64,000 nucleotides of DNA from a virus (taxonomy: Duplodnaviria; Heunggongvirae; Uroviricota; Caudoviricetes): the IMG/VR virus record IMGVR_UViG_3300028886_000075. The stretch is one strand, 5' to 3'. This document shows, piece by piece, positions 4,234 through 64,000 of the stretch. The translations under genes were made by a program, and so were the position numbers. Each line of letters starts with the position of its first letter. The first letter of the stretch is position 1. Below the pieces are notes generated by a model. The model worked only from the letters and a program-made list of their open reading frames with translations. It did no database searches and was not told where the DNA came from.

Positions 4234-4245
4234 ATATATTAAACT

Positions 4246-4917: not shown

Positions 4918-4920
4918 ATA

Positions 4921-4975
4921 TTAAACTATGAAAAACTTATAATTTATAAACAAATGAAGAACCTAAAAGACATCA
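4921..4975. repeat. duplicated 5-prime module (vestigial start 'ttaaactatgaaaaa' plus 37 nt matching 3201-3237 with 1 mismatch)
   Basis: Direct comparison: 3201-3237 'ttataatttgtaaacaaatgaagaacctaaaagacat' against 4938-4974 with one substitution. 4921-4935 matches the 4240-4254 start context. Confidence 0.7.
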
Positions 4976-10498: not shown

Positions 10499-10519
10499 AA
10501 TTTACCTAACAATATATAT

Positions 10520-10556
10520 GAAAGGTTACTGATTAATTTCAGTAACCTTTTTGTTG
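10520..10556 (+). terminator. rho-independent terminator (aaaggttactg...cagtaaccttttt)
   Basis: 11-bp stem followed by a T-run, directly after the SPFH gene. Confidence 0.7.
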
Positions 10557-10632
10557 TATATTTACATCCTTATAAATTATTTTATTATTTTTATTAAATA
10601 ATATTATAACAAAAATAATTCAATAAATTAAT

Positions 10633-11265: not shown

Positions 11266-11325
11266 GAAATTATTATACTATTTAAATTTTATTTTTATAT
11301 ATAACTAATATATAAATTAATTAAT

Positions 11326-24156: not shown

Positions 24157-24303
24157 TTAAAAAATATTCATTATTAATAATAATATTTGAATATAAATTT
24201 TCAAATGATATTAAAAAATTTTATTTTTATTAAATTGTATAATATTCTATTTGCATAAATTATGGTTATAGAATATATTAATACAATTAATGCATATAAT
24301 AAA

Positions 24304-24311
24304 TATAAATA
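24304..24311 (+). promoter_or_regulatory. TATAAATA T4-type late-promoter-like motif upstream of the tail sheath gene
   Basis: Exact TATAAATA lies 15-22 nt upstream of the ATG at 24326. Confidence 0.35.
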
Positions 24312-24325
24312 AAAGATATACAAAT

Positions 24326-39334: not shown

Positions 39335-39529
39335 ATGAAACAAATAAAAGAATTTATTAATGAATCAAACGAATGGAATCCATCATTAGATTCTCATAAA
39401 GTTGCATATAATAACTTTGTTAAATGGTATGACAAATGTTTAAAACATTTAAATAAAGAAGAAATATTAGATTTACTTAATGGAGCAATTAAAGAAATTG
39501 AAGATGATTCATTAGATATCATAAAATAA
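39335..39529 (+). CDS. hypothetical protein, CTS-like N-terminus (MKQIKEFINES)
   Basis: Conserved N-terminal motif. Confidence 0.6.
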   Translation: MKQIKEFINESNEWNPSLDSHKVAYNNFVKWYDKCLKHLNKEEILDLLNGAIKEIEDDSLDIIK

Positions 39530-39547
39530 ATATATTGAAACTAATTA

Positions 39548-40069
39548 ATGAAATCAATAACTCAATATATATATGAAGCTGTAGAAAATTATAGATTGAA
39601 TTCTGTTGAAGTTACATATAATGTTCAACCAGAAGAATTAATATTACAAGCACCTGAAACATTCCAAGAGTCAGATATCCAACAATACATAGACGATATG
39701 TGGCTCAATCAACTTCCATCTTCTCAAGACTATTCTGAAAAATTCTTTGGAAAAAATAATGATAATATATCTGATGCATATTTTGAATATGATTCATTTG
39801 AACATCTTTCAGTAGAACCTAAAGATTATATTGAATGGAATTCAAAATATGATGTTAAGAAAAGTGGAGATGACATTACATTAGAATACTTTAAAATAAC
39901 AAATCTTAAATATCATATTAATTTTGATAGATTTGATATGGTTGATGTTGATGATGATAATGTAGAAGAAAAACTTAAAGATATATTTAGAACCACAGAA
40001 TCTAATAAAGAAAATGAATATCCTATAGAAATTCAATTTGATGAAGATTCACTTGAATATAGAAAATAA
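39548..40069 (+). CDS. hypothetical acidic protein, CTS-like N-terminus (MKSITQYIYEA)
   Basis: Conserved N-terminal motif. Confidence 0.6.
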   Translation: MKSITQYIYEAVENYRLNSVEVTYNVQPEELILQAPETFQESDIQQYIDDMWLNQLPSSQDYSEKFFGKNNDNISDAYFEYDSFEHLSVEPKDYIEWNSKYDVKKSGDDITLEYFKITNLKYHINFDRFDMVDVDDDNVEEKLKDIFRTTESNKENEYPIEIQFDEDSLEYRK

Positions 40070-40129
40070 ATAAAACAAAATAAAGATATTATATAGAGGC
40101 ATAATACCAAATACATCTATGATTATCTT

Positions 40130-40339
40130 TTGATTACAAAACCTCGATCTGACTGTAATAAACATATTATTAAACGTGAACATTACTGTAAAAAAGACGG
40201 TGAATGGAAACCTAAGAAAAAGTTTAATAGTGAAGAAGAAGCCAATACATGGATAACAAAATATAAAATGTACAAATATACTGCATATATATGTAAAGTC
40301 TGTGGAAAATGGCATATAGGTATTAAAAAGAAAACATAA
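40130..40339 (+). CDS. small zinc-ribbon-like protein
   Basis: CNKH...HYCKK...CKVCGKWH, 69 aa. Confidence 0.45.
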   Translation: MITKPRSDCNKHIIKREHYCKKDGEWKPKKKFNSEEEANTWITKYKMYKYTAYICKVCGKWHIGIKKKT

Positions 40340-40359
40340 AAACATTAAAAAATCAATAT

Positions 40360-40677
40360 ATGAAAGATTTAATTAGTATAATAACAGAATCAAGAAAAGA
40401 AATATGTCCTGAAGTTCAAAATGAATTCGAAAATGATTATGCATATCAATCTTATACAACAACAAAATCAAAATTTGATTATGGATTTTTAACATTTGAT
40501 GCTAATCAAGAATTTTATTCTGTTGTTGGAGTTAATGAAAACAGTGAATTCATTGATTCTTTATGTAATGATTTTAATTTAGATGCAGAAGAATTATTAG
40601 ATTTAAAAGTTGGTGAATCAATAAGTGATAAAAGCCATGGAGATAATTATAACTATTCAATTTTAAGAATTTGGTAA
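40360..40677 (+). CDS. hypothetical protein, CTS-like N-terminus (MKDLISIITES)
   Basis: Conserved N-terminal motif. Confidence 0.6.
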   Translation: MKDLISIITESRKEICPEVQNEFENDYAYQSYTTTKSKFDYGFLTFDANQEFYSVVGVNENSEFIDSLCNDFNLDAEELLDLKVGESISDKSHGDNYNYSILRIW

Positions 40678-40701
40678 AAATATAAAATATAATCACATAT
40701 T

Positions 40702-41196
40702 ATGAAAAATTTAACTGAAAAACTTAATATACAAAATATTAATGAATCAGTCGCAAAAGATATTAAGATTCCACGTAAAGGAAGCACTGTATATCTTTTA
40801 AAAGATGGTGATTCTAAAGCAATACCTGTAAAAGTCAATAATGTCACAAAGGTTAAGAACTCTTGGTATGGACGTTCAGGTGGATATGATGTAATTATTG
40901 AATTAGAAGATAATGAATATAAATTTGATGGCTGGAAAACATCACATTATGCAGACCCAAAATTAGATGAACCTATTCAAGTAGATACAAAATCAGTACA
41001 TGGAATTGGCACTTTTTACGTTGGTACATCTAAAGAAGTAATTTCAGAATTCATAAAGAATGGTGCGACAAAGAAACTTAAAATGTTACTTAAAGAAATA
41101 GAAGATGCAGAAAATCAACTTGCAGAATTAAATCGTCAAAAGAATGAACTTCAACAAAAGATTGACACTGAAATTACAGAATCTTTAAATAAATAA
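40702..41196 (+). CDS. hypothetical protein, CTS-like N-terminus, C-terminal coiled coil
   Basis: MKNLTEKLNIQNINES. C-terminus LKEIEDAENQLAELNRQKNELQQKI. Confidence 0.6.
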   Translation: MKNLTEKLNIQNINESVAKDIKIPRKGSTVYLLKDGDSKAIPVKVNNVTKVKNSWYGRSGGYDVIIELEDNEYKFDGWKTSHYADPKLDEPIQVDTKSVHGIGTFYVGTSKEVISEFIKNGATKKLKMLLKEIEDAENQLAELNRQKNELQQKIDTEITESLNK

Positions 41197-41205
41197 TTTA
41201 TAATT

Positions 41206-41487
41206 ATGAAAGACATTAAAGAAAAACTATTAAGCCAGATTAATGAAGACAGATTTGCATATTCATGGCAAAATGCTTTCATAAATGCTATCATATCATT
41301 AAATGATGTTGATGGTGAAATTCCTTGTCGTGAAATAGTCAATAAATGGTTTAATGATGAACAAGCTCTTCATGAATTATATACATTCTTATATCGTATA
41401 GATTGTAAACCTGAAAAGAAGGATGTAAATTCTATAGTTGAAGCAATTATAAATAAATCATCAAAATTGAAAACTTACAAGATATAA
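41206..41487 (+). CDS. hypothetical protein, CTS-like N-terminus (MKDIKEKLLSQINED)
   Basis: Conserved N-terminal motif. Confidence 0.6.
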   Translation: MKDIKEKLLSQINEDRFAYSWQNAFINAIISLNDVDGEIPCREIVNKWFNDEQALHELYTFLYRIDCKPEKKDVNSIVEAIINKSSKLKTYKI

Positions 41488-41508
41488 AAATATATGAGTT
41501 AAACAAAT

Positions 41509-41772
41509 ATGAAAAATTTAAAAGATAAATTAGTTTTGGAAAATGAAGAATCTGCAATATTTACATTAACTGCTAAAGATTTAGATAAGATACTTTTTTC
41601 ATTATCATTTACTGCTGGGTGGGCTAGCGAAGTTAATTCATATGAAATGAAAGAATATAAGAAACTTTGGGATGAATTAAATAAAGGAGCAAAGAAATCA
41701 TTTGATGCAGATATGTATGTAGATGACTGGGATGATTATGAACTGGCTCATACAGGAAGCTTTAAACATTAA
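41509..41772 (+). CDS. hypothetical protein, CTS-like N-terminus (MKNLKDKLVLENEES)
   Basis: Conserved N-terminal motif. Confidence 0.6.
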   Translation: MKNLKDKLVLENEESAIFTLTAKDLDKILFSLSFTAGWASEVNSYEMKEYKKLWDELNKGAKKSFDADMYVDDWDDYELAHTGSFKH

Positions 41773-41803
41773 TTATATAATAAATTATGAGAATACTTAA
41801 ATA

Positions 41804-42154
41804 ATGAAAGACATTAAAGAATATATTAATGAATCTAAAAATTTCAAATTAGAATCTGATGAACGTCAAGCTTTAGCAGACTTAATTGGTATGTTATGCG
41901 GTAATATTGGAAATGATGAAGATATAAACAAATTAAAATCTGTAATAGATCAATTAAGTAAAGAAGAAATAAAACAATTAGATAATCTTCATGATTGTTT
42001 AGATGATGAAGAAACATATAAGAAAATAAATCGTAATATTATTATTGATGATATTCCATTGATTAAAAAAATATATAAATTAATGGATGATAATAATTTA
42101 TTAGGAGAACAATGGGATCTTATTGATGCTTTAGAGAAAATAAATGAATATTAA
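41804..42154 (+). CDS. hypothetical protein, CTS-like N-terminus (MKDIKEYINES)
   Basis: Conserved N-terminal motif. Confidence 0.6.
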   Translation: MKDIKEYINESKNFKLESDERQALADLIGMLCGNIGNDEDINKLKSVIDQLSKEEIKQLDNLHDCLDDEETYKKINRNIIIDDIPLIKKIYKLMDDNNLLGEQWDLIDALEKINEY

Positions 42155-42156
42155 AT

Positions 42157-42558
42157 ATGAAACAAATAACATCATATTTGTTAGAAGGTCTTCGTATCAA
42201 TAAAGATATTAAAGTTAATTATGAAAGAGATGATATATACAACATTATAATTGCTGCTTATCTTTCTATATATCGTCTTAAATGTTGGACTGAAACATCT
42301 ACATTTAAAAAGAAAATTTTATATATTAAATATGAAGATATATTAAATATTCTTAATGATAATTTTGAATATACATTTACAAAAGACGATATAAAAAGAA
42401 CATCAGGATATATATGGAAAATTGTTAGAAAATATTTAATACCTATTCAGAATATGATTAATGGATATAATGTAATTATTAGAATTGAAGATGAAAAAAT
42501 AACAATTAATTATAAAGAAATTAATGAAAAGTATAAAGACATTTTAAATAAAAAATAA
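42157..42558 (+). CDS. hypothetical protein, CTS-like N-terminus (MKQITSYLLEG)
   Basis: Conserved N-terminal motif. Confidence 0.6.
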   Translation: MKQITSYLLEGLRINKDIKVNYERDDIYNIIIAAYLSIYRLKCWTETSTFKKKILYIKYEDILNILNDNFEYTFTKDDIKRTSGYIWKIVRKYLIPIQNMINGYNVIIRIEDEKITINYKEINEKYKDILNKK

Positions 42559-43496
42559 TGCAATCTTTGAATAACTATATAATAGAAACAAATATAGAAA
42601 ATATTTTTTTGGATAAATTATGTAATCATATATCATTATCATTATATATTAAATATGGTTACGGAATTTATCCATATGTTTCTTTATATGAATCATTTGG
42701 TAATTTTAAGAATACTCATAAAGTATTATATCATATTATTGAAGTATTAAAAAATGAATTCAAGTCTCAAGAAATAGATTGTACTAATGATAATGTATTT
42801 TTCAAGAAAATAAAAATAGATATAGTTAATGAAGATTATATAAGTGCAAGTTATTTAAATATTAATAATGATAAAATAGATATTGAAATATTATGTTTAG
42901 ATAAAGAAATGTTTATTGATAATATTGAAGAATATACTGAATTGATATTACATGAACTTTTACATGGTTATGAAGATTTTAACCGTAAAACAACTAATAA
43001 ACCAGATATATTTCAATTATGGAATGTTGATTATGAAAAATCTTATTTAAATATAAATAATTTTGATAAGATTAAAAGATATATAAGTAGATGTAAATAT
43101 TTTTTAAATTCACAAGAACGTAATGCGTATTTTTCATCTTTAGAATTATCTATTAAGAAAATAATTAAAGATTATCATATTACTGCAGATAATTTAGATT
43201 ATGAAAAATTCAAACATGGAATTAAACGCGAAACATTATGGGAAATTTATTTTGATTTAGGAACATTTATTCTAGGATTAAATAATATAAATAATGAATA
43301 TAAAAAGGAAATAGAAAAACAATATAATTCATTATATAATACAAACAAATCATTTAACGAAATCAAAAAAGAATTAAATAATAAATGGAAAAAATTTGAT
43401 CATAAATTCAATCAGTTAATTCCTAAAATATTATGTAAAAATATACAAATAAAAGAATTTAAAAATTCTTCTTTTAGTTTGAAAAAATTATTATAA
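42558..43496 (+). CDS. hypothetical protein with an HExxH motif (LHELLHGYEDF), CTS-like N-terminus (MQSLNNYIIET)
   Basis: An HELLH pentapeptide is followed by GY. A paralogous HELNHGY is present in the 63029 ORF. Confidence 0.55.
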   Translation: MQSLNNYIIETNIENIFLDKLCNHISLSLYIKYGYGIYPYVSLYESFGNFKNTHKVLYHIIEVLKNEFKSQEIDCTNDNVFFKKIKIDIVNEDYISASYLNINNDKIDIEILCLDKEMFIDNIEEYTELILHELLHGYEDFNRKTTNKPDIFQLWNVDYEKSYLNINNFDKIKRYISRCKYFLNSQERNAYFSSLELSIKKIIKDYHITADNLDYEKFKHGIKRETLWEIYFDLGTFILGLNNINNEYKKEIEKQYNSLYNTNKSFNEIKKELNNKWKKFDHKFNQLIPKILCKNIQIKEFKNSSFSLKKLL

Positions 43497-43508
43497 AAAC
43501 TTTACATT

Positions 43509-44396
43509 ATGAAGTCATTGAACAACTATATATTTGAATCTAAAGAAGTTTCTACAAAATCTAATAAAGAACGTCGTAAGGAATTGGAAAAATGGTTGAA
43601 ACATAAAAAGTATGACGATTATGTTGATACTTTAAATAAGATGCTTGAAGATCCTAAATCAGCTGCATTATTGGAAGATGGTTTTGGGGGAGAACTTGGA
43701 GATACAAAATTAACATTTTCAGTTAAAGAAATTCCAGTATCTCAGTTAATGCCTACACAAAAAGATATAGATTTAGATAAGTCATTAAAACATGCATTAA
43801 CAGATAAAGAATCTTTAATTAAGACTTTTGCAAATCCAATTGAAATCAATAAGCCTATTGTTACTTTTAGAGAGAATTATGTTATAGACGGTCATCATAC
43901 ATGGCTACAAGCTATAGCATTAAATCCAAAAGGAAAAATATTATCATTTAATTATGACGGTGATATTTCTCCAATTCAGATGCTTAAGGCTGTACAAGGA
44001 ACTATAGCAGCAGTTAAAGCTGATAAGAATAATAATAATGGTAAACTTCCATCAAATAATGTAAAAGGTCCTAATTTCTTTGATGAATCATTTGATGAAA
44101 AGAAAATTAGGAAATATATAGAAGATAATCTTAATGAAGACTTAATAGATCAATATATAGAAAAAATAGAAGAATGCTATGATTACGATTCTACTGTTGA
44201 TTATATAGTAGAACGTCTATTAGATATTAAGTCAAATAATTATCCATTTGATACAGCACCAGATAGAAAGAATATGCCACAAGTATTTAAAGGTGGCACA
44301 GATAAAGATGATAAAAGTTCTGCATTACCTGATAAAGAAGGTTCTGCGATGAATAAACTTAAAAATGATACCTTTTATAAAAAAGCTACCATTTAA
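43509..44396 (+). CDS. ParB/sulfiredoxin-fold nuclease-like domain protein, CTS-like N-terminus (MKSLNNYIFES)
   Basis: VSQLMPTQKDID ... PIVTFRENYVIDGHHTWLQAIALN resembles the ParB N-terminal domain (L-PTQ ... DGHHR). Confidence 0.45.
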   Translation: MKSLNNYIFESKEVSTKSNKERRKELEKWLKHKKYDDYVDTLNKMLEDPKSAALLEDGFGGELGDTKLTFSVKEIPVSQLMPTQKDIDLDKSLKHALTDKESLIKTFANPIEINKPIVTFRENYVIDGHHTWLQAIALNPKGKILSFNYDGDISPIQMLKAVQGTIAAVKADKNNNNGKLPSNNVKGPNFFDESFDEKKIRKYIEDNLNEDLIDQYIEKIEECYDYDSTVDYIVERLLDIKSNNYPFDTAPDRKNMPQVFKGGTDKDDKSSALPDKEGSAMNKLKNDTFYKKATI

Positions 44397-44436
44397 ATAA
44401 GTATAAATATGATAAATTTATAAAATCAGTTACAAA

Positions 44437-44892
44437 ATGAAAGATATAGTTAATTATATTACAGAAGCATCTTCATCAAAATTTGATTATTGGAAAGATG
44501 TAATTAAATTTCCTGGATATGAACTTAAAGTATCAAAGAAATACTTAGACAAGAAAATAAATACAAGATATTATCAGGAAGAATTCTTATATCAATATTT
44601 TGGTTGGATTAACCAATGGATTGATAAGAATGTTAAAAAGATTATTAGTATAGTAACTAAAGAAAATAAAGAGTTTCCAAAAGAAATTTCAATATCTTTA
44701 CCAAGTGAATTACATGGTGTTTTACAATTTGACTGGGATTGTGGTTGGGCAGATAATATACCAACAGGATCTCTTCGTGATGTTGAATTAAAAGTAGATA
44801 ATGTTTCACCAGGATCAATGAGTCATAGTTCATTCTATCAGGCACAAGAAGATTTACAAAATTTTAAATTAAAAGATATAATTAAATTTTAG
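44437..44892 (+). CDS. hypothetical protein, CTS-like N-terminus (MKDIVNYITEA)
   Basis: Conserved N-terminal motif. Ends with TAG, a rare stop in this window. Confidence 0.6.
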   Translation: MKDIVNYITEASSSKFDYWKDVIKFPGYELKVSKKYLDKKINTRYYQEEFLYQYFGWINQWIDKNVKKIISIVTKENKEFPKEISISLPSELHGVLQFDWDCGWADNIPTGSLRDVELKVDNVSPGSMSHSSFYQAQEDLQNFKLKDIIKF

Positions 44893-44943
44893 TTTAATAG
44901 ACAATAAATAATATTTTTAATAAATAGATATTAATATTAATTA

Positions 44944-45498
44944 ATGAAAGACATTAAAACATTTATTTCAGAAGCAAAGAAACAAACACCTAAAAAAGAA
45001 TACCCTATGAAAAAGAAAGAAACTTATGGAGATTTAGGTGAAAAATGGTTTGATAAGTGTAAAGACTTTGCTACGGCAGGAAGTACACAATGGACTAAAT
45101 ACGGTATCAATGATTTTAAAGGATTCTTAGAAGATATGGATAAAGAATTCAAACCAGGTGGAGAAGGCCGTTGGAAAAAGGATTGTGAAGTTCGTTGGGA
45201 AATGTGTCAAGCACTTAAAGATAAAGATTTAGATAAATTTGTAAAAATTGCTAAAGAAAACTATGTTGAAAAATTTACTTTTGGTGCACATCCTAATGCT
45301 GATTACACTTATGGATCATATTTTTTAGATACTTATATGCTTCTTAGAACTTACGAATATATTCTTGATGGCAATATGGTAATTCGTAATGGTATTTTAA
45401 ATGCTATCTGGAGAATTGATGATACTATGGATAATTGGTATGATAAATTTATTGATACAGTTCATAAATTAGAAAAACAAGTTCCTGGACATAAATAA
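44944..45498 (+). CDS. hypothetical protein, CTS-like N-terminus (MKDIKTFISEA)
   Basis: Conserved N-terminal motif. Confidence 0.6.
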   Translation: MKDIKTFISEAKKQTPKKEYPMKKKETYGDLGEKWFDKCKDFATAGSTQWTKYGINDFKGFLEDMDKEFKPGGEGRWKKDCEVRWEMCQALKDKDLDKFVKIAKENYVEKFTFGAHPNADYTYGSYFLDTYMLLRTYEYILDGNMVIRNGILNAIWRIDDTMDNWYDKFIDTVHKLEKQVPGHK

Positions 45499-45528
45499 AT
45501 AATATATCAAACATATAAACATATAAAA

Positions 45529-45840
45529 ATGAAACATATTAAGAATTATATATTAGAAAAAAATGAAGATAAAACTTTAAGTGGATTCTGTATCATAGAT
45601 ATGACAGATGAAACATTGATATCTAGGTGGGGAACTGGTGATTTAAGAAAATGTATAACAGAATTACAAAAGCTTAAAAAGGAAGAAGAAGATAAAGAAT
45701 ATTGGATAGTTGCTGAATTTAATGAAATATATGATTTAGAAGATACTGGTAATTATAGAGTATTATCTTCAAGAGAATATAATGAAAGAGAAGATGATTT
45801 TGGTATTAATCCAAAATTTAAAGAGTATATACTTAAATAA
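45529..45840 (+). CDS. hypothetical protein, CTS-like N-terminus (MKHIKNYILEK)
   Basis: Conserved N-terminal motif. Confidence 0.6.
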   Translation: MKHIKNYILEKNEDKTLSGFCIIDMTDETLISRWGTGDLRKCITELQKLKKEEEDKEYWIVAEFNEIYDLEDTGNYRVLSSREYNEREDDFGINPKFKEYILK

Positions 45841-45857
45841 ACACATATATATGATAT

Positions 45858-47234
45858 ATGAACGTTAAAATTGTTCAAGATAATAGTAGAACTGAACGTA
45901 ATGTTTCAGATGATGTAGTAGAAATACTTTATCAAGAAACTAAAAACTATGAAACACACGATAATTCTAAATTAATTGGTAGTATTGAAATCAATCGTGG
46001 GTATTCTGATGCAGTAGAATTTTTAAATAGAAATTATTCAAATTTAACAATATCTACTAAATTTGAATCATATATAAGATTTGAAGATCCTATTGTTGAA
46101 CAATTAATATTAGATAGATTTTCAACATTAGATACTCCAGTTGGTGATGGCATAGGTATAACACAATCTGATTTAAATAGTATTAATCAAGGTTGGTTTT
46201 GGGATACTTTTCAAAATACTGAAATAACTAAATTTAATGAATTTAAATTATGTATAAATTATAAAAATTTATCAAGTGCAAGTTTTAAAAATTGTACAAA
46301 ATTAGAAGAAATTAATTTAACTAATATTGAAATCATATCTGTAGCTTCATGTTTACAAAATACCAAAATAAAAGAAGCATATTTACCAAATTTAACAAAA
46401 ATAACTGCGGGTAATATTTTTTATAATTGTACAGAATTGGAATCGTTTAATGCTCCTTTATTAGAACAAATAACTGGTGCTTCACATTTTTATAATTGTA
46501 CTTCATTAAAAACAATAAACATACCTATATTTAATGGTAGAATAAGTGAGTCTATGTTTAGAAATTGTTCTTCATTAGAAACATTAAATATAGGAAATAT
46601 TACTGAAATAGTTGGGAGTTATGCTTTTCTTGGGTGTAAAGAATTGTCTTCAATAGATTTATCTGAATGTACAAAAATACAAAGCGATTCTGTATTTAAT
46701 GGTTGTTCTTCTTTAACTAATTTAGGAGATACATCAAATATTACTTATTTTAATGGAACTTGGACATTTTTTAATTGTTCAAATTTAACTGGTACTTTAG
46801 ATTTATCTAATATTAGTAATGATTTTAATTTAACTGGTACATTTAATAATTGTTCAAATTTAACAAAAATAAAATTAGGTGTTACAAATACTATAGGTAG
46901 TAGATGGCATGGTTTTGACAATGATAGAAAAGCATTTTACGGATGTACTAATTTAGTTACAATAGATATTAAACAATTAAACCATACAGCTCTTGAGTAT
47001 AAAAGTGCATTTGGTAATAATCCTGCATTAAGAAATTTTATAATACGTAATACTGAAAATATACCTGCATTTGATAATGAACAAACAACAGTAAATATAA
47101 ATTGTTTTGGTGGATCAAATGTTAAAGTATATGTTGATGATAATTTATTAGAAACATATAAAACTACAGAAGGCTGGGAAGATATGATAGATTATTTATA
47201 TCCTATTAGTGAATATGTTCCTATAGAAGATTAA
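45858..47234 (+). CDS. BspA-type leucine-rich repeat (LRR_5-like) protein
   Basis: Repeats of the form F..C..L..I.L.N.T.I....F..C..L. Confidence 0.65.
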   Translation: MNVKIVQDNSRTERNVSDDVVEILYQETKNYETHDNSKLIGSIEINRGYSDAVEFLNRNYSNLTISTKFESYIRFEDPIVEQLILDRFSTLDTPVGDGIGITQSDLNSINQGWFWDTFQNTEITKFNEFKLCINYKNLSSASFKNCTKLEEINLTNIEIISVASCLQNTKIKEAYLPNLTKITAGNIFYNCTELESFNAPLLEQITGASHFYNCTSLKTINIPIFNGRISESMFRNCSSLETLNIGNITEIVGSYAFLGCKELSSIDLSECTKIQSDSVFNGCSSLTNLGDTSNITYFNGTWTFFNCSNLTGTLDLSNISNDFNLTGTFNNCSNLTKIKLGVTNTIGSRWHGFDNDRKAFYGCTNLVTIDIKQLNHTALEYKSAFGNNPALRNFIIRNTENIPAFDNEQTTVNINCFGGSNVKVYVDDNLLETYKTTEGWEDMIDYLYPISEYVPIED

Positions 47235-47314
47235 TTTATATGTAAAAATTACATATATTATTTAAAAAATTTAATGTTTATACTATATTATATTTGTAAT
47301 TAATAAAATAATTA

Positions 47315-47758
47315 ATGAATATGGAGAATATGTATACAACAACAAATTTTTGTGAGGGTCTGATACAGTCAATTATTAATTATATGAATGAAAATAAGGT
47401 TAATATATTACCACTTGAATTCCTTGCAAAACGTAATGATTATAGTTCTTGTAAATCTGCCCGTATTCTATTTAATTCTGGTATTAAGTATTTTACTGTT
47501 GTAAATGGAGAACTTCATGTTACTACTCATAGTAAGTATACTAATAAGGATTACGAATATATTGTTTCTGCTGTAAGACATCCTTGGCCTGATACTTCTC
47601 ATTATTCATTCCATACTCAGGATTTGGTAATTTTAATTCAGATTGCTTATGATACCATTGGTTCATCACATTTTAAAGGTTGTGGAGTTGAAAGTTATGA
47701 TCCATCAGATATTGATGAACTAGAAAAGGAATATGAAAACCGTCGCAACGAAATTTAA
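47315..47758 (+). CDS. hypothetical protein
   Basis: 147-aa ORF followed by a terminator. Confidence 0.5.
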   Translation: MNMENMYTTTNFCEGLIQSIINYMNENKVNILPLEFLAKRNDYSSCKSARILFNSGIKYFTVVNGELHVTTHSKYTNKDYEYIVSAVRHPWPDTSHYSFHTQDLVILIQIAYDTIGSSHFKGCGVESYDPSDIDELEKEYENRRNEI

Positions 47759-47780
47759 TTAAATTTAAATCTAATACTTT

Positions 47781-47823
47781 TAGACAATATTTAACTTTTG
47801 TTAATTATTGTCTATTTTTTTAT
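47781..47823 (+). terminator. rho-independent terminator (tagacaata-17nt-tattgtcta then TTTTTTTAT)
   Basis: Read directly from the sequence. Confidence 0.65.
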
Positions 47824-47852
47824 ATAATCTAAAAATAAGATAGAATTAAAAT

Positions 47853-48299
47853 ATGAATAATGATAATAAATGGCATCGTGCAAAAGTTCCATTCTTTTTA
47901 GAAGTTGAATATTATGATGAATATAATCCTGAAACTGAAAGTATAATAATGAAAAGTCTATTAAAAGGCGATGATATTCTTCCAGGATTACGAGTTAATA
48001 AAATGTTTGCAAATTTTGTAGATAAAGATATTCTTGTTGCAGATGAAATTCATAAAGATTTACATCATCTTATGGAAGAATTTGAAAAGTTTTCAATTAA
48101 GTATGCTAATTTTATGGAGGATAAATCTAAAGATAATTGTATGAATAAATTAGGTATGAATCCTAAAGATTTTTCAGATAAAGAAAAGAAACATGCTGAA
48201 GAAATTAAACAAGTAACTTCTAATGGGCAGACTCCTAAAATTAATTCAGAAACAGGAAGATATATTGCATATGATGATTTATCAAATTTTCCAACATAA
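47853..48299 (+). CDS. hypothetical protein
   Basis: 148-aa ORF. Confidence 0.5.
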   Translation: MNNDNKWHRAKVPFFLEVEYYDEYNPETESIIMKSLLKGDDILPGLRVNKMFANFVDKDILVADEIHKDLHHLMEEFEKFSIKYANFMEDKSKDNCMNKLGMNPKDFSDKEKKHAEEIKQVTSNGQTPKINSETGRYIAYDDLSNFPT

Positions 48300-48553
48300 T
48301 GATACCAGGATTTGTAACAATATATATAGATAAAGATAAAAATAAACATTTATATTTTTTTCCAGGAATAGACGATAACGGTGAATCAATATATAGAGAT
48401 ATTGATTTACCTAATTGTCCATTTAAATATGATAAAGTTATAAATGAAGATTTTTCAATTGATTATAAGTTTTATAATAATATAAAGAAAATTACGTGTA
48501 ATCTTGTTAAAATTAATGGTGAAGTAGATATTAATGTTTTAATATTTAAATAA
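48299..48553 (+). CDS. hypothetical protein
   Basis: 84-aa ORF with a TAATG overlap. Confidence 0.45.
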   Translation: MIPGFVTIYIDKDKNKHLYFFPGIDDNGESIYRDIDLPNCPFKYDKVINEDFSIDYKFYNNIKKITCNLVKINGEVDINVLIFK

Positions 48554-48554
48554 T

Positions 48555-48809
48555 ATGATAAAAGGTAATTGTATAGATAAATTTATTTCAAAACGATTAG
48601 ATAATATTTTAGTTGAAATTTTAAATTTAAGATCAAAAATTCGTCAACGTCGGAATGATAGAGAAAATATAATTGATTATTTTAATTCTGGTTGTTACGA
48701 AAAAGATTTTTCAGATATAATAGAATTAAGAAATATTTCTATTGATTTAACTAATAAATGTAATATATTTTTGGAACGTATTTCAGAACAATATTCAAAG
48801 ATAAATTGA
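48555..48809 (+). CDS. hypothetical protein
   Basis: 84-aa ORF. Confidence 0.45.
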   Translation: MIKGNCIDKFISKRLDNILVEILNLRSKIRQRRNDRENIIDYFNSGCYEKDFSDIIELRNISIDLTNKCNIFLERISEQYSKIN

Positions 48810-48843
48810 TTATTATTAATTATATTTATTTTTATAATTAATA

Positions 48844-51147
48844 ATGAATCATATTAATATACAAAATGAATCAACAAATATCACTGAATATATAGATTCA
48901 AATATTTTAGAAAAAATTTATAATTTATTTTCTGGTGAGGTTACACCAACAGAATTAGATCATATTATATTAGATAATACATCTATATTAAAAGGAAATA
49001 TAACAGTACCATCAGTATATAAATTTATATATGATTGGTTATTAGAAAGATATCCAAATACATTAAGAATTAATTATAATGATTTGTATATTTATATTAA
49101 AGATCCATATATAGAAGCAAAATTATTAGAAAACAATTTTGGTGATAGCACTAATTCACATGTAACATATTCTAAAGTATTTGCTGCAACAACATTACCG
49201 GTTTTTGGTATTACTGGTTCATATAGTGAATATGAAGAAAACATTACTGAATTTAAAGAATTGGCAGAATTCACTAATATTAAAAAACTCTCAGATAGAA
49301 TATTTAGACAATGTAGAAATTTAGAAACAGTTGATTTAATAAATGTTACAGAATTAGGAAATGCTGCATTTTATAGATCAGGTATAAAACATTGTTTAAA
49401 TTCGGGTAATGTTGAAATTATTGGGGAGCAGTGTATTGAAGATTGTACTAATTTAGAAACATTTGATTTTTCTTCAGTAAAAAAAATTGGAACACATAGT
49501 ATATATAATACAGGATTAACTGCAATACATTTTAATGGTTCTGAAGATATAATTTTAATGAACCAGGCAATCAATAATAATAAAAGTTTAACAGTTATAG
49601 ATGGATTACAAAATGTTAAGCAATTTACTGCCGGTAATATATTTTCGAATAACACTGCGTTGTTAGAATTAAGATTAGATAATTTGGAATTATGTGACGG
49701 AAATAATTTCGTTAACAATTGCACTTCATTACATACATTTTATGCACCTAAATTAGCGACAAAAATAGAATACGGGACATTTGGTGGTTGTAAAGCATTA
49801 AAAAATTTAACTATTGACTGGGAAAATATAACTACTATTAAAGGAAATGCATTTAATTCCTGTACATCATTAACATCAGATAAAGTTGATATATCTCATG
49901 TTACAGAATTTACAGGAAATGGACATTTTACTGAGTGTAGTAGTTTAACTTCATTAACGGTAAATCAAAATATAATTAATATTCCTGAATATTTTTGTTA
50001 CAGATGTACTAATTTATCAACAATTAATTTAACAAACTGTACTACTATTGGTAATTATGCTTTTATTGGTACATCATTAGTTAATGTTGACATAAGTGCA
50101 TGCTCATCTTTAGGAGCTGGTGTATTTGCTGAAGTGAATACATTGACTAGTGTTAAGTTATGTCCAAATTTGAAAACATTAAATACTGGAGTATTTAAGA
50201 GCTGTATTAATCTTTCTAACATCAACACTAATTTTGCAGTAATTACATCAATTGGTAGTTCTGCATTTGAAGGTTGTAAATCATTGACAACATTTGATGT
50301 TTCATCAGTTATGTCATTAGGTGATTGGTCATTTGCTTACTGTGACAATCTAACAACGTTAAATCTTTCTTCAGTAATAACAAACATACCTAATCAATGT
50401 TTTAGAACCAACCCTAAACTAACATCTGTTGGTGATTTGTCAAGTGTTAAAATAATAGAAAAACAGGCATTTTTAGATTGTCCTTTGTTAACTGGTCCAT
50501 TAGATTTAAGTAATTGTGAAACTATAAATGGAAGTGCATTCAAAGGATGTTCAGCATTGACAGAAGTAATATTGACTACAAAATGTACTTTAATAAAAGG
50601 TGAAGCATTTAGAGGATGTACGAATCTAGAATCAGTTGGGGATTTGTCTAACGTTACAATGTTAGGAACCCATTTTGCTAATGATATGCATACATTTAGT
50701 GGGTGTTCATCATTAGTTTCTGTCAACTTATCGAATAAATGTACATTATTATGTGGTAATACATTTAGAAACTGTACGTCATTAACATCTGTTGGTGATA
50801 TATCAGGTCTTATTGATATATATGTAGCGACATTCTACAATTGCTCATCATTGACTCAGAATTTTGATCTATCTAATATAACTGGAATAATTGGTGAAGC
50901 TGCATTCCAAGGATGTTCATCATTGACATCTATACTTGTTGGTGCTAATGTACAGAAAATTGATCAAAATGCATTTAAGGATTGCCCATTATTGACCGTC
51001 AAGTTCTTAGGAATTACACCACCATCAGATTTTGCAATCAATGCGTTCAATTCACAGATTTATAATATATTAGTTCCTAATGATTCATTGAATTCATATA
51101 AAGTAAAAATACCTGAAAGCTTACATTCAAAAATAGAAACATACTAA
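48844..51147 (+). CDS. large BspA-type leucine-rich repeat (LRR_5-like) protein (767 aa)
   Basis: About 20 repeats of CT(S/N)L..V.L....IG..AF.GC..L type. Confidence 0.7.
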   Translation: MNHINIQNESTNITEYIDSNILEKIYNLFSGEVTPTELDHIILDNTSILKGNITVPSVYKFIYDWLLERYPNTLRINYNDLYIYIKDPYIEAKLLENNFGDSTNSHVTYSKVFAATTLPVFGITGSYSEYEENITEFKELAEFTNIKKLSDRIFRQCRNLETVDLINVTELGNAAFYRSGIKHCLNSGNVEIIGEQCIEDCTNLETFDFSSVKKIGTHSIYNTGLTAIHFNGSEDIILMNQAINNNKSLTVIDGLQNVKQFTAGNIFSNNTALLELRLDNLELCDGNNFVNNCTSLHTFYAPKLATKIEYGTFGGCKALKNLTIDWENITTIKGNAFNSCTSLTSDKVDISHVTEFTGNGHFTECSSLTSLTVNQNIINIPEYFCYRCTNLSTINLTNCTTIGNYAFIGTSLVNVDISACSSLGAGVFAEVNTLTSVKLCPNLKTLNTGVFKSCINLSNINTNFAVITSIGSSAFEGCKSLTTFDVSSVMSLGDWSFAYCDNLTTLNLSSVITNIPNQCFRTNPKLTSVGDLSSVKIIEKQAFLDCPLLTGPLDLSNCETINGSAFKGCSALTEVILTTKCTLIKGEAFRGCTNLESVGDLSNVTMLGTHFANDMHTFSGCSSLVSVNLSNKCTLLCGNTFRNCTSLTSVGDISGLIDIYVATFYNCSSLTQNFDLSNITGIIGEAAFQGCSSLTSILVGANVQKIDQNAFKDCPLLTVKFLGITPPSDFAINAFNSQIYNILVPNDSLNSYKVKIPESLHSKIETY

Positions 51148-51176
51148 TTTATCATAATTGAATTTATAAATTTTAT

Positions 51177-51229
51177 AAATACCTAACTATTTTATATTTA
51201 GAATTAAATTATAGAATAGTTAGGTATTT
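51177..51229 (+). terminator. 15-bp stem hairpin (aaatacctaactatt ... aatagttaggtattt) then TTTTTT, ending 4 nt before the 51233 ATG
   Basis: Read directly from the sequence. Confidence 0.65.
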
Positions 51230-51232
51230 TTT

Positions 51233-51871
51233 ATGACAAATAATATTGAAATAATGAGAAAGTATATGGGAGACTTAGGAATTCCTGAAAGGCAGCTATA
51301 TAGAAAAGATCTTTATTTTGATGTTCAGTTGATTCGTCGTGGTAAAGATAATCCTGATATGCCAGCTGCAAATTATACCTTTAAGACTTATTATATTGAT
51401 TCATTAGAATTGTTTGATAGATATATTGAAGAAATCAAACAATGTTGTGAAATGTTTAAACTTCGTGCATATATCAGCGTTAATGCTAAATCCAAAATTG
51501 AACTTTCAAAAAAGACATTAGTTAAATATGCAGAAATGGTTGCTTTAGAAGAATCAAAGAAGCCATGGAGATTTTGTGATTCTGTAAATGGATCAATGTC
51601 AGGAAAAGAAAAACGATGGGTAATAGATATTGATGATTGTGAAGATGATAAGCAATATCTTTATTATGTTCGTGAAGCTATTGGGAGATGTTCAACTAAA
51701 TACGATAATGCAATTGTTGTTACGTTACCAACAAAATCAGGATTTCATGTTATAACTCACCCATTCAATACTTATGAATTCAATAATCATTGTAAAGACA
51801 TGGGTATTGAAATTCCAGAAATTAAAAAGAATCACATAACTTTACTTTATGAAAATATTAATTTAGAATAA
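51233..51871 (+). CDS. hypothetical protein (upstream neighbour of the NMNAT gene)
   Basis: 212-aa ORF. Confidence 0.55.
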   Translation: MTNNIEIMRKYMGDLGIPERQLYRKDLYFDVQLIRRGKDNPDMPAANYTFKTYYIDSLELFDRYIEEIKQCCEMFKLRAYISVNAKSKIELSKKTLVKYAEMVALEESKKPWRFCDSVNGSMSGKEKRWVIDIDDCEDDKQYLYYVREAIGRCSTKYDNAIVVTLPTKSGFHVITHPFNTYEFNNHCKDMGIEIPEIKKNHITLLYENINLE

Positions 51872-51891
51872 ATAATTAAAGAAATTAATAG

Positions 51892-52470
51892 ATGAAAACT
51901 GGAATAATATTAGCACGATTACAACCCATTCATAATGGGCATTTAGCATTAATTAATAAGGCATGGGAAGAAAATGATGAAGTATATATATTTGTTGGTA
52001 GTGCAGATAAATTTAATGAACGTAACCCAATACCAATTAATCTTAGAATGCAGTTAGTTGATGGTGCATTAGAAACACTTAGAGAAAAAAATAAAACACT
52101 TTCTAACCCAAAAATAATTAAAGTTGTACCATTAGATGATTTAACTGATGAATCAGATAATTCACATGATTGGGGATTTTATTTATATTCTAAAATTGTA
52201 AGTGAAACGGGTAATCCAAATTTTACTATATATTATTCAGATGGTTTTGAAATAATTACTACATGGTTTCCATCATTTATCCTAAGAAATAATGTAAGCT
52301 TATGTTTACTTGCTCGTAATGCTACAGTTGATGGTATATCAGCGACTGAGATAAGAAAGATGATACTTGAAGATAATGTTAATAAATTAAAACATTTTGT
52401 TCCTAATATTGTTTTTGATATGAAAGATACAATTAAGAAACATATTGAATTAGCAAAACTAATAAAGTAA
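51892..52470 (+). CDS. nadM: nicotinamide-nucleotide adenylyltransferase, archaeal NadM type
   Basis: GIILARLQPIHNGHLALINKAWEENDEVYIFVGSADKFNERNPIP parallels M. jannaschii NMNAT GLLVGRMQPFHRGHLQVIK...DELIICIGSAQ...RDPF. This includes the (H/T)xGH signature. Confidence 0.8.
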   Translation: MKTGIILARLQPIHNGHLALINKAWEENDEVYIFVGSADKFNERNPIPINLRMQLVDGALETLREKNKTLSNPKIIKVVPLDDLTDESDNSHDWGFYLYSKIVSETGNPNFTIYYSDGFEIITTWFPSFILRNNVSLCLLARNATVDGISATEIRKMILEDNVNKLKHFVPNIVFDMKDTIKKHIELAKLIK

Positions 52471-57540: not shown

Positions 57541-58758
57541 GTGAGTAAACAGTTTAATTTAAGTAAGTCTTCGTTAAACGAAATAGAATTATTTTTTGAT
57601 AAGATAGATTCTTTTATTGATGATTATGAATTTTATGATACATTTAAAGAAATTGTATATAAAGATTCTAAAATGATAAAAGATTGTTCGGAAAAATGTA
57701 TTGTAAGTTTTTATATAGAGTCTTGTAAAGATATATTAGAAAAATCTAATTATGAAATATATGAATCTTTTTATAATGATTTAAAATATAAAACAAGATT
57801 AAAACTTGTTGATAAGTTTGTACCAAAAGTTTTATATGATAATAATATTGATATATATTTTAATGAAGTAAAAAGAGAATATATTATGCATCCTATGGGT
57901 GAATCTGAAGATATGGCGTTTGTACCAGAAAATAAAGAAGTTTTTATTAAGAATAATTTAAAACTTGTAATTGATTGTGCAAAACGTTATCAAAATTTAG
58001 GTATTCCATTGGAAGATTTAATACAAGCAGGCAATGAAGGATTATTAATAGCTTTTAATAAATTTGATGGTGAAAGATCAAATTTAAGAAATAATATCAT
58101 AAACGATATAAAGAAATCAGATTTATATTTTTTTAATAAATATGATGCAATAGATATTATTAAAAAAAATTTTCAATATACAAAAACTTTAGAATCAACA
58201 TTAAGTAAATTACCCGAAGAAGGATTTGAATGTAAAGATGATTTTATTGATTGGGCACAAGAAAACATTAAAAAAGCATCGTTTTCATCTATAGGTTTTG
58301 CGTGGATTAAGGCATTTATATTATCTGAAATTAATAAACTTGGAAAGATAATAAGAGTTCCTAAGTCTGCTCAAAAGAAAGGTGTATCTACAGTTAATGT
58401 TTTACGTTTAGATTCAATTAATCCACACACTGATGATTCATATCACGATAATCAAATTTCTTCAGTCGCAAATGAAGAATTTGCTATTGAAGATGAAACA
58501 ATGGAAAATATGGAACGTCAGAATTTATTCAAAGAAATAATTGAACGAATGCTTTGTAATGTTTCTGCATTAGATAGAAGAATAATAAAAAAGAAATTTG
58601 GAATTGATAAACCATTTCCAATGTCAATAAATGAAATAGCAGAAAATGAAGGTTTATCTGCAAATAAAGTTAAGTATAGTATAAGTAATACATTAAAGAT
58701 AATTGAAAAAAATTGTACACCAAATGAACGTAAAACAATAATATCACTTTTGAAGTAA
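57541..58758 (+). CDS. sigma-70-family RNA polymerase sigma factor (second phage-encoded copy; GTG start)
   Basis: Region 2: NKEVFIKNNLKLVIDCAKRYQNLGIPLEDLIQAGNEGLLIAFNKFDGER. Region-4-like HTH: MSINEIAENEGLSANKVKYSISNTLKII. Confidence 0.65.
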   Translation: MSKQFNLSKSSLNEIELFFDKIDSFIDDYEFYDTFKEIVYKDSKMIKDCSEKCIVSFYIESCKDILEKSNYEIYESFYNDLKYKTRLKLVDKFVPKVLYDNNIDIYFNEVKREYIMHPMGESEDMAFVPENKEVFIKNNLKLVIDCAKRYQNLGIPLEDLIQAGNEGLLIAFNKFDGERSNLRNNIINDIKKSDLYFFNKYDAIDIIKKNFQYTKTLESTLSKLPEEGFECKDDFIDWAQENIKKASFSSIGFAWIKAFILSEINKLGKIIRVPKSAQKKGVSTVNVLRLDSINPHTDDSYHDNQISSVANEEFAIEDETMENMERQNLFKEIIERMLCNVSALDRRIIKKKFGIDKPFPMSINEIAENEGLSANKVKYSISNTLKIIEKNCTPNERKTIISLLK

Positions 58759-62167: not shown

Positions 62168-63001
62168 ATGAAAAATTTAGGTGATTTAATAAAAGAATCA
62201 TTTATTAATACAGATATTAATGAATATGATAATTATATAATTGAAGGATTAAATATTGATCCTAATGAAAAAATTGTATCATTAACAGATAATCATAATA
62301 AAGGATTAGATTTATCATTAATTAATAATCCTGTATATAGTACATATAAAGGATATAATGTTATTTCTATTTTTAAAAGAACAAAATTATATGATATTAA
62401 TGATGTTCAAAGAGATGGAAATCCATTTATTTATGCATTAAAAAATAAAAATGGATGGAAATTTAAAATAACTGATAAAGAAATACATAAATATATTAAG
62501 AGATTTTTAGAAATATGTAAAAAAATTAAATCTTCATATGATACAATTATAATAACACCATCATCAAGTGATATTAATGAAAAATTTATGAAAGTAATAT
62601 CTAATCAAGTTAATTGTAAAGATATTATTAATGAATATTTTGTAAAATTATCTAAAGAAGAAATAATTGATGATGATTTAATTGATAAAGATCAAATTCA
62701 AAATGATTATGGAAATGATTATACTAAAGTTTTAGCAGAAATTAATAGAAGTTTTAGACGAATGAAAGGTGAATCATTTGAAGCTAAATATATTAAAAAG
62801 GAATATTTAAAATATATTAAATATATATCAACAAATTCAAATGATAATATAAGAGATAAAATAGATAATAAGGATATTTTATTATTAGATGATACTATAT
62901 CATCTGGAGAAACATTAAGTCAATGTATAGAAGGTATAATATCAAATTTTAATCCAAAATCAATTACAATTATAACATTATTATCACAGCTTAATGAATA
63001 A
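62168..63001 (+). CDS. type I phosphoribosyltransferase-fold protein, CTS-like N-terminus (MKNLGDLIKES)
   Basis: The C-terminal PRPP-binding motif DILLLDDTISSGETL matches the PRTase / PRPP-synthetase signature. Confidence 0.55.
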   Translation: MKNLGDLIKESFINTDINEYDNYIIEGLNIDPNEKIVSLTDNHNKGLDLSLINNPVYSTYKGYNVISIFKRTKLYDINDVQRDGNPFIYALKNKNGWKFKITDKEIHKYIKRFLEICKKIKSSYDTIIITPSSSDINEKFMKVISNQVNCKDIINEYFVKLSKEEIIDDDLIDKDQIQNDYGNDYTKVLAEINRSFRRMKGESFEAKYIKKEYLKYIKYISTNSNDNIRDKIDNKDILLLDDTISSGETLSQCIEGIISNFNPKSITIITLLSQLNE

Positions 63002-63028: not shown

Positions 63029-64000
63029 ATGAAAACAATTAAAGAATATTTAGAAGATCAATTATATCAAGACTTATGCTATACATACACTGAAATAGAT
63101 GAATCTGGTGGGTTATATGATGGTCAATTAGAATTATCTACTAAAATTACTAATGATATAGAAAATAAGTTATCAAATACACTTAAATATAAATATAATG
63201 ACTTTAATATAAAAAATATATATTTTAATGAACTAGATATTAACATAACATATTTTGATGCAACAAATCATACAGTTAATGTCATATGTTTAATTGATTT
63301 TATATCAAGTGATAATAAGTGGGATGATTTTAAAAAATATAATTTTGATAAAGAAACAAATAGATTGAATAAAATTACTATTGATTTAAAATGCCCTAAA
63401 CAAGTAAATATATATTATGATAATATAAGATCTAGAATTTCGCATGAACTAAATCATGGATATGTATATTGGCAAATTATTAAAGATGATTTTTCAGAAA
63501 AAAATGTTGTTCCGGATAATTATCATAATAAATTACATGAATGGTCAAATAATATATATAATAAAATTACAAAACATATTAAAACCCCGACAAATAATGA
63601 AGCTGAACAAATTTGTTATAATTTAATTTATACTTTAACAAGATATGAACGAAATGCATTTTTATCAGAAATAATTACATATCTATTTGATAGGAATAAT
63701 GTTTTTAAAAATATAAATGATTTAAAAAGCGAATTAAATAAATCTACACAATATAAATTATATACTGATGAAGGACCAAAAATAATAGATATAATTAAAA
63801 AACATTGGTCTAAAGATAAACAGCAAATATTAGCAAACGCATATAATAAAATATATAATACAAAATACACTTCAGGAAAAATTATAAATTTATTAGAATT
63901 TAAAATTGAAGAAACAATTAAAAAAATAAATAAAAATATAAATACATTATCAAGAAAATATAAAAATGAAATAAATGAAACTATAAGTTATATACATTTT
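63029..64000 (+). CDS. hypothetical protein with an HExxH motif (SHELNHGYVYW), CTS-like N-terminus (MKTIKEYLED); 3-prime partial at the window end
   Basis: Open frame with no stop through the end of the window. Translated manually. Not in the ORF track because it has no stop. Confidence 0.5.
   Translation, partial: MKTIKEYLEDQLYQDLCYTYTEIDESGGLYDGQLELSTKITNDIENKLSNTLKYKYNDFNIKNIYFNELDINITYFDATNHTVNVICLIDFISSDNKWDDFKKYNFDKETNRLNKITIDLKCPKQVNIYYDNIRSRISHELNHGYVYWQIIKDDFSEKNVVPDNYHNKLHEWSNNIYNKITKHIKTPTNNEAEQICYNLIYTLTRYERNAFLSEIITYLFDRNNVFKNINDLKSELNKSTQYKLYTDEGPKIIDIIKKHWSKDKQQILANAYNKIYNTKYTSGKIINLLEFKIEETIKKINKNINTLSRKYKNEINETISYIHF

Follow-up and report, generated by a model that had tools for sequence, protein, structure and literature searches.

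Two leucine-rich repeat (LRR) genes, here called P1 and P2, are carried by a 64,000-nucleotide stretch of DNA from a tailed virus of the Caudoviricetes (IMG/VR record IMGVR_UViG_3300028886_000075), the whole of which is referred to below as the window. An earlier note, made by reading the letters alone, had placed open reading frames (ORFs) at 45858–47234 and 48844–51147 and described their products as BspA-type (LRR_5) proteins. Both ORFs are present exactly at these positions on the + strand and encode proteins of 458 (P1) and 767 (P2) amino acids (aa). The BspA-type assignment also held, as both proteins match the Pfam LRR_5 family (PF13306; gathering score 27.7 bits) far above threshold, P1 with 91.8 bits (E 4.2e-26) in two stretches and P2 with 311.9 bits (E 3.3e-94) in seven. 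The “C..L” anchors of the two proteins are spaced 23, 46 or 92 residues apart, the signature of 23-residue Cys-containing repeats, and many of the repeat spacings at the DNA level fall at or near multiples of 69 nt.

Structural comparisons agree with this assignment. Searched by sequence against the PDB, P2 matches the BspA-like LRR_5 structures 4fs7, 4gt6, 4h09 and 4fd0 as well as TpLRR (6mlx), which come from Bacteroides, Faecalibacterium, Eubacterium and, for TpLRR, T. pallidum. An AlphaFold2 model of P2 forms a long solenoid over residues ~150–745, with a predicted local distance difference test score (pLDDT) of 89, and the best Foldseek matches of this model are the same PDB LRR_5 proteins (4fs7, E 9e-11). 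By score, by 23-residue repeat and by solenoid fold, P1 and P2 belong to the LRR_5 repeat family. Within the repeats, scaffold positions are invariant between orthologues and the x positions are variable, a phase analysis from which no binding face is assigned.

The two proteins had been thought to consist almost entirely of LRRs, which is incorrect: a separate, conserved module that is not LRR takes up the N-terminal ~120 residues in P1 and ~150 in P2. In P1, this N-module spans residues ~1–120 (45858–46217, + strand, matched by profile A1) and is followed by about 10–11 LRR turns of 23 aa (residues ~121–415) and a C-terminal cap (~416–458) that contains VYVDDNLLETYKTTEGWEDMIDYLYPISEY. P2 is built along the same lines, with an N-module at residues 1–149, about 25 LRR turns at ~150–745 and a helical C-terminal cap at 746–767.

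The proposed likeness to bacterial surface adhesins stands for the fold and fails for the remainder of the protein. Neither P1 nor P2 has a signal-peptide-like or transmembrane-like hydrophobic stretch by hydropathy, the peak over the first 50 residues being 0.17 for P1 and 0.81 for P2, and both N-termini are charged. Pfam finds only LRR families in the two proteins, and no anchoring or stalk domain (type IX secretion system C-terminal domain, Big_2 or Flg_new). Because they have neither an export signal nor an anchor, P1 and P2 are judged on sequence grounds not to be exported cell-surface adhesins of the BspA class. Known BspA-type LRR_5 proteins (T. forsythia BspA, TpLRR and B. ovatus BACOVA_04585/4fs7) have the same 23-residue Cys repeats and solenoid, and they share with P1 and P2 a C-terminal “...YVP..(x)YK...W” cap. 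Unlike them, the window proteins are encoded by a phage, lack a signal peptide, lipobox, type IX C-terminal domain and immunoglobulin-like (Ig-like) stalk, and bear the N-module, which is found on phage contigs as far as it has been placed.

A conserved N-terminal module and a giant tail protein

The N-terminal regions of P1 and P2 are recognisably alike, and the same module is found in all LRR paralogues on related contigs and in gp53 of the crAss-like phage cr272_1. When profile A1 was searched exhaustively against 1.84 billion cluster representatives, 986 were recovered at E<=1e-3 and 449 at E<=1e-10, whereas the N-terminus of P1 gave no match when searched by itself with a word-indexed protein method. 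Nearly all of the matches start at residue 1, in proteins 300–900 aa long. LRR_5 is also present in 99 of the 110 representatives scanned for it, with no other type of domain recurring, and ten clusters that were checked are all metagenomic and none is named. AlphaFold2, run on residues 1–190 of P1 with a 36-sequence alignment, predicts a small alpha/beta unit that sits against the initial turns of the LRR region (pLDDT 92). Residues 1–~40 of the module occur only in free-standing proteins, while residues ~41–120 form a cap domain that is present in fused forms too, where the match starts at profile position ~39–41. Since it is found only in the free-standing forms, the segment of the first ~40 residues is a candidate for docking, a role that we infer from this distribution.

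The fused forms link the module to a family of giant tail-region proteins. A scan of IMG/VR with the N-module profile gave 26 loci, in 22 of which the module (from position ~40) lies at residue ~1,500–1,800 of ORFs of 1,790–2,200 aa. These giants end in the N-cap, LRR_5 repeats and the same C-terminal cap as P1 and P2. The two of them that were scanned (L010 and L029) match phrog_24896 and phrog_14959. The window encodes a giant of its own that also matches phrog_14959, a 2,188-aa protein in the structural block (13752–20318, + strand) that is flanked by the gene for a tail-tip-domain protein and that for the prohead protease, and this is the proposed virion partner of P1 and P2. It is homologous to gp54 of the crAss-like phages cr272_1 and cr273_1, with 36% identity over 2,148 aa, and in both of those phages the gene directly after gp54 is an N-module LRR protein (gp53).

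The family of the window giant also includes a 2,245-aa protein of Hankyphage, whose gene comes after those for the tape measure, baseplate hub and minor tail protein. This Hankyphage protein bears the variable repeat of a diversity-generating retroelement (DGR) at its C-terminal end (PMC6199706); it has been named a tail fibre and was found by mass spectrometry in particle preparations (PMC12135933, S6 table). Genes near the giants of L010, L029 and L025 likewise match tail, tail-fibre and collagen-repeat families. Taken together, these relationships suggest that siphophages, podophages and myophages share one giant scaffold with a variable C-terminal binding tip. In Hankyphage this tip takes the form of a lectin diversified by the DGR, many gut phages have a fused LRR_5 domain instead, and in cr272_1 the LRR_5 tip is a separately encoded protein, as it would also be in the window.

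Several further observations concern the giant itself. No PDB sequence match was obtained for the 2,188-aa protein at E<0.1, and Pfam found none for its last 372 residues. A reading of the giant as a crAss-type virion RNA polymerase was set aside, its homologues being located at the tail-fibre position of 40–46-kb temperate Bacteroides siphophages. At full length the giant is 36% identical to the product of NC_055903 16180–22716, a match between a giant myophage and crAss-like podophages, and its central region is common to Hankyphage-type siphophages and Bacillus phage G gp353; to be exchanged so widely among morphotypes is unusual for a tail protein. The cr272_1 genes for gp54 and gp53 each contain three in-frame stops in the standard code (L005 1–7548), and because of these stops cr272_1 appears to use a recoded stop codon.

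Tips with LRRs are arranged in a different manner in three other contigs. In L025, L011 and L022, LRR_5 cassettes in inverted orientation come shortly after the giant gene (at 10205–12439, 10979–12152 and 10930–12219, respectively), those of L025 matching Pfam LRR_5 at E 1e-28 and 2e-49. In the three contigs, inverted repeats of 63–108 nt correspond to a stretch within the expressed gene. The cassettes of L025 are truncated at their 5′ ends, and the 64-nt inverted repeats there encode the junction between the cap and the first LRR, KFQGNSEITSFDEF. This layout is that of invertible tail-fibre segments and looks like a host-range switch in gut phages of ~50 kb. No recombinase gene was found near the inverted cassettes of L025, and no invertase gene was seen in the sequence examined of the three contigs. 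The window at 45000–52000 has no long inverted repeats or inverted cassettes. P1 and P2 are encoded in the same direction there, and the surroundings of their locus gave no sign of a DGR or reverse transcriptase. LRRs on a phage tail are not without precedent: in the Klebsiella P2-like prophage ST16-OXA48phi5.4 (L006, NC_049450 2624–5650), Ig-like and LRR_5-like repeats lengthen the baseplate protein gpI to 1,008 aa, and such an extension is found in about a dozen Kp48xx prophages too.

Expression signals and turnover of the LRR locus

A 13-mer, TTTTATTTTTATA, occurs with no more than one mismatch at six intergenic sites on the + strand of the window. The sites at 11287, 20406, 22232, 24219, 37669 and 48824 lie upstream of the tail-tip gene (11326), the prohead protease gene (20490), the capsid gene (22301), the sheath gene (24290), gene 37731 (the first of a long + strand block) and P2, respectively. 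Only 1.0 site is expected in intergenic DNA, and six were reached in 2 of 2000 shuffles. The P2 copy of this promoter-like motif, ATTTATTTTTATA, occupies 48824–48836 (+ strand), 8 nt before the start codon, and the motif is kept at variable distance upstream of the P2 orthologues of the related contigs L001, L004, L036 and L035. The element, which may also be written as the TTTATTTTTAT motif, is probably a late-promoter element of the phage. A generic sigma-70 scan was uninformative in DNA of 25% GC content (172 promoter-like sites against 186 expected). The window also encodes a sigma-like protein at 57541–58758.

The strong hairpin that the earlier note had seen after P2 was recovered, at 51177–51229 (+ strand; -22.5 kcal/mol, z -7.7). 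It is followed by a U-run, resembles an intrinsic terminator and closes the P2 unit. Equivalent hairpins, with compensating differences that preserve pairing, follow the orthologues in L001, L004, L036 and L035. Directly after P1 there is a weak hairpin only, and the next strong terminator-like hairpin with a U-run (47781–47821, + strand; -14.3 kcal/mol, z -6.5) comes after the ORF at 47315–47758. In stem sequence this second hairpin resembles the one that follows L035's single LRR gene, and it probably ends the unit that contains P1. A generic terminator scan missed the AT-rich terminators of the window. Because it has a motif and a terminator of its own, P2 is likely a separate transcription unit, and probably a late one as far as a sequence motif can tell.

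Eight true orthologues of P2 (P0001–P0008) were identified, 711–777 aa long and 36–91% identical to it. They are set apart from cellular LRR_5 proteins by a clear gap in score, with E<=1e-123 for the orthologues versus E>=1e-77 for the cellular proteins. Four related contigs keep the same frame of genes, namely a 295-aa gene, a gene of ~101–113 aa, one or more LRR genes, a trio of 148, 84 and 84 aa and another LRR gene; L035 is an exception in that its single LRR gene precedes the trio. The number of LRR genes at the locus ranges from one in L035 to two in both the window and L036, three in L001 and four in L004. The LRR proteins are 35–52% identical between contigs, versus 70–94% for the flanking proteins. 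Mosaicism is also evident, with a clean breakpoint near P2 residue 400: P0002, P0003 and P0006 share residues 1–400 of P2 (59–98%) and not 401–767 (22–23%), and P0004 and P0005 show the reverse pattern. In the 441-kb contig L038, the LRR genes occupy another part of the genome, beside an AAA gene. Such divergence, variation in copy number and mosaicism are, judging from the comparison of these contigs, the behaviour of a host-range or arms-race gene.

The neighbours of P1 and P2 are conserved to differing degrees. A 103-aa gene (45529–45840, + strand) ends 17 nt upstream of P1 and is probably co-transcribed with it; its product begins with MKHIKNYILE, and orthologues 72–75% identical occupy the same position in L001 and L004. 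The trio of small genes before P2 (47853–48809, + strand; 148, 84 and 84 aa) has orthologues of 57–72% identity in L001 and L004, is present in L036 and L035 too, and has no Pfam or PHROG match above threshold. The ORF at 47315–47758 (147 aa) is without a homologue in L001 and L004, which have an extra LRR gene of 709–720 aa in its place.

Genomic setting

The GC content of the window is ~25%, falling to 14% in intergenic DNA. Its structural genes include those for a T4-type prohead protease (20490–22193), a T4 gp23-like major capsid protein (22301–24058), a tail sheath protein of 1,031 aa (24290–27385) and a protein with a tail-tip domain and a carbohydrate-binding beta-helix (11326–13524). 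At the head of the structural block is a 697-aa SPFH/Band-7 protein (8405–10498), an unusual domain for a structural region of a phage. A type II topoisomerase is also encoded. The gene that follows its GyrB-like subunit is read as two ORFs, 62168–63001 (277 aa) and 63029–64000 (at least 324 aa), where a single gene of at least 460 aa is called at the matching position of L001; the gene may have been split or have received an insertion, or the gene calls may simply differ. The window reads through cleanly with translation table 11.

The best relatives of the capsid protein are from huge uncultured phages (LR756500, 462 kb, 36% identity), followed by PAU, Tenacibaculum jumbo phages and the Prevotella Lak megaphages. 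The metagenomic contig L038 encodes an AAA protein 62% identical to that of the window. From these capsid relatives and the L038 match, the window is therefore taken to be a piece of the genome of a giant myophage, and the relationships suggest a Bacteroidota host in an animal gut. A megablast search of 45000–52000 against GenBank phages gave no match.

About 17 ORFs of the window start with MKxIxxYIxE, which nearly matches the capsid-targeting sequence (CTS) of T4, MKTYQEFIAE. They are located at 1541–5457 and 39335–45840 (e.g., 3218, 3766, 4246, 4954, 43509, 44437, 44944 and 45529), with another at 62168. Their products include an AAA_33 kinase-like protein, a 295-aa protein that is ParB-like by eye and three DUF285 proteins, the last of which had been predicted from the sequence and are confirmed at 3218–4917. 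Together with the T4-type prohead protease, these tagged ORFs suggest a very large set of proteins that are packaged in the head and injected. P1 (MNVKIVQDNS...) and P2 (MNHINIQNES...) do not carry the tag, as the earlier note had said.

Proposed role of P1 and P2

The reading that we favour, at a probability only slightly better than even (roughly 0.55), is that P1 and P2 are late-expressed, detachable adhesins that attach to the virion tail by docking on the giant protein. The comparisons show the fold and family of P1 and P2, their links by fusion and neighbourhood, the variation in copy number, the mosaicism, the shared motif and the terminator, whereas the location in the virion, the docking partner and the ligand are inferred. 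Both proteins would be made in the cytoplasm without a signal peptide and, since they lack such a peptide or a transmembrane segment, would not be exported by the host. The N-module, and especially its first ~40 residues, would then dock them on the tail, the partner most likely being the 2,188-aa protein. The LRR_5 solenoid, of about 10 turns in P1 and about 25 in P2, would present a variable surface to a ligand on the surface of the host cell, and P1 and P2 could offer alternative LRR surfaces for binding. Three processes would tune host range: LRR genes are gained and lost (relatives have 1–4 per genome), paralogues recombine, and the sequences diverge rapidly. The earlier note had suggested adhesins or fibres of the virion that bind host or mucosal glycans, or decoys. 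The virion part of that idea gains indirect support from the fusions to giant tail-region proteins, the adjacency in cr272_1 and the Hankyphage fibre within the giant family, while nothing in the results shows the glycan, mucosal or decoy part. No result favours glycan binding specifically, and the ligand could be a protein, capsule or another glycan.

Several points weigh against a docked tail adhesin. The genes for P1 and P2 are 25–30 kb from the giant and other tail genes, outside the tail module, in a long + strand block with small accessory, macro-domain, sigma-like and topoisomerase genes. The window giant does not contain the N-module and is only 20–23% identical to the fused giants, over 400–500 residues. 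The P2 motif lies 8 nt from the ATG, versus 27–72 nt at the structural genes, and P1 has no motif of its own. LRR proteins are, moreover, usually monomeric binders of other proteins, unlike the trimeric fibres of phages.

The main rival explanation, which we consider unlikely, is that P1 and P2 are cytoplasmic effectors outside the virion whose LRR solenoids bind host proteins, for takeover of the cell or against its defences, and that they diversify in an arms race. The distance from the tail module and the company of accessory ORFs, a macro domain, a sigma-like factor, a nucleotidyltransferase and a topoisomerase would fit such a role, as would the lack of a signal peptide and the general tendency of LRRs to bind other proteins. 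Fast divergence and changes in copy number are also typical of anti-defence loci, and the LRR genes of the 441-kb L038 lie elsewhere, next to an AAA gene. An effector role nevertheless leaves unexplained that tail-region giants end at their C-termini in the module and LRR_5 at 22 loci, that an LRR gene directly follows the giant gene in cr272_1, and that silent inverted LRR cassettes downstream of the giant have the arrangement of tail-fibre genes. The motif of P2, furthermore, is common to the capsid, sheath and protease genes.

Less probable still is a decoration of the virion that binds animal mucosa or matrix, in the manner of T4 Hoc in the “adherence to mucus” model. BspA-type LRRs have an affinity for host matrix proteins, the fold is common to BspA-like surface proteins of gut and oral bacteria, and the source is gut or rumen-type metagenomes, with relatives from pig and human faeces. 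For the C-type lectin tip of Hankyphage, mucosal binding was proposed by Benler et al. (PMC6199706). The divergence and mosaicism, however, and the switching by inversion or DGR in relatives, are more readily explained by a bacterial receptor that varies than by animal ligands that are conserved.

Two other explanations have very little probability. P1 lies 17 nt downstream of a run of four CTS-like ORFs, in a phage with a T4-type prohead protease and a gp23-like capsid protein, and the LRR proteins might thus be supposed to reside within the capsid and be injected with the DNA like the tagged proteins around them; they lack the MKxIxxYIxE tag borne by about 17 other ORFs of the window, however, have a different, conserved and folded module at the N-terminus, and have homologous units fused to tail proteins. 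Recent capture of bacterial surface-adhesin genes, as morons or decoys with no role in the virion, could be argued from the best full-length matches beyond the eight orthologues, which are cellular LRR_5 proteins of about 1,000–1,300 aa from Clostridia, Bacteroidota and other groups, but it is countered by the lack of a signal peptide and an anchoring domain, by an N-module present in 986 representatives almost always at residue 1 and paired with LRR_5 in 99 of 110 scanned members, and by the score gap between the orthologues (E 1e-123 or better) and the cellular proteins (E 1e-77 or worse).

As detachable tail adhesins, P1 and P2 would have counterparts among known phage systems. The gp38 adhesin of T-even phages of the T2/T6 type is detachable, is a separate gene product and has conserved N-terminal and variable receptor-recognition parts. 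P1 and P2 resemble it in having a conserved N-terminal and a variable part, in mosaic exchange and in their proposed position on the tip of a large fibre. Unlike gp38, which has a glycine-rich-motif fold, they are LRR solenoids with several paralogues that are not adjacent to the gene for the partner, and their attachment is a proposal only. In Hankyphage (Bacteroides phage p00), the giant scaffold is of the same family as the product of ORF 13752–20318 and its C-terminal tip is the variable ligand-binding element. The paradigm of a DGR-diversified tip is Mtd of Bordetella phage BPP-1. The tip in Hankyphage is a C-type lectin diversified by a retroelement, whereas that proposed for the window is an LRR_5 solenoid encoded in separate genes and varied by recombination and turnover. 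Invertible tail-fibre segments are known from Mu (G segment) and P1 (C segment), and the silent inverted LRR_5 cassettes of L025, L011 and L022, with repeats at the junction with the constant part, are like them; the window differs in having no inverted arrangement. Finally, gp53 of cr272_1 and cr273_1 (“leucine-rich repeat domain-containing protein”) has the same architecture of N-module and LRR_5 and is paired with a homologue of the giant. Unlike the window phage, cr272_1 is a podovirus with apparently recoded stops, and its single LRR copy is directly downstream of the giant gene.

A broader proposal, held more tentatively and at somewhat less than even odds, is that the N-module plus LRR_5 is a shared, exchangeable receptor-binding cartridge of gut Bacteroidota phages. 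It would be used by megaphages (myoviruses), crAss-like podoviruses and phages of ~50-kb contigs with a Hankyphage-like giant, would be fused to, or docked non-covalently on, one conserved giant tail protein, and would be diversified by gene turnover, by recombination and, in some lineages, by DNA inversion. If true, the cartridge would be to LRRs what the DGR-diversified tips are to C-type lectins, and LRR-fold proteins would for the first time form a class of their own among phage receptor-binding proteins. BspA is reported to bind animal mucosal or innate-immune proteins, and a ligand of that kind in place of a bacterial receptor is a more remote prospect for the phage proteins.

Annotations as “leucine-rich repeat protein” already exist on phage records. 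A search of the literature found no paper on a phage receptor-binding protein with an LRR fold, on this N-module or on its link to a giant tail protein, and nothing relevant on BspA or LRRs in phage tails or crAss-like phages; the LRR_5 signal in a SPLASH preprint was set aside as an unrelated miniature inverted-repeat transposable element.

Of the steps in infection by the dominant gut phages (crAss-like, Hankyphage and Lak-type), most of which are unculturable, the one least understood is the recognition of the host. If the LRR family is a swappable tip, its sequence could serve to mark the determinants of host range in phages of three morphotypes, and structural and binding work would have two definite proteins to address, the giant scaffold and its LRR tip. 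A monomeric LRR solenoid would also be a new scaffold for the engineering of phage specificity, and the same role would explain why genes for “bacterial adhesins” are frequent in gut viromes.

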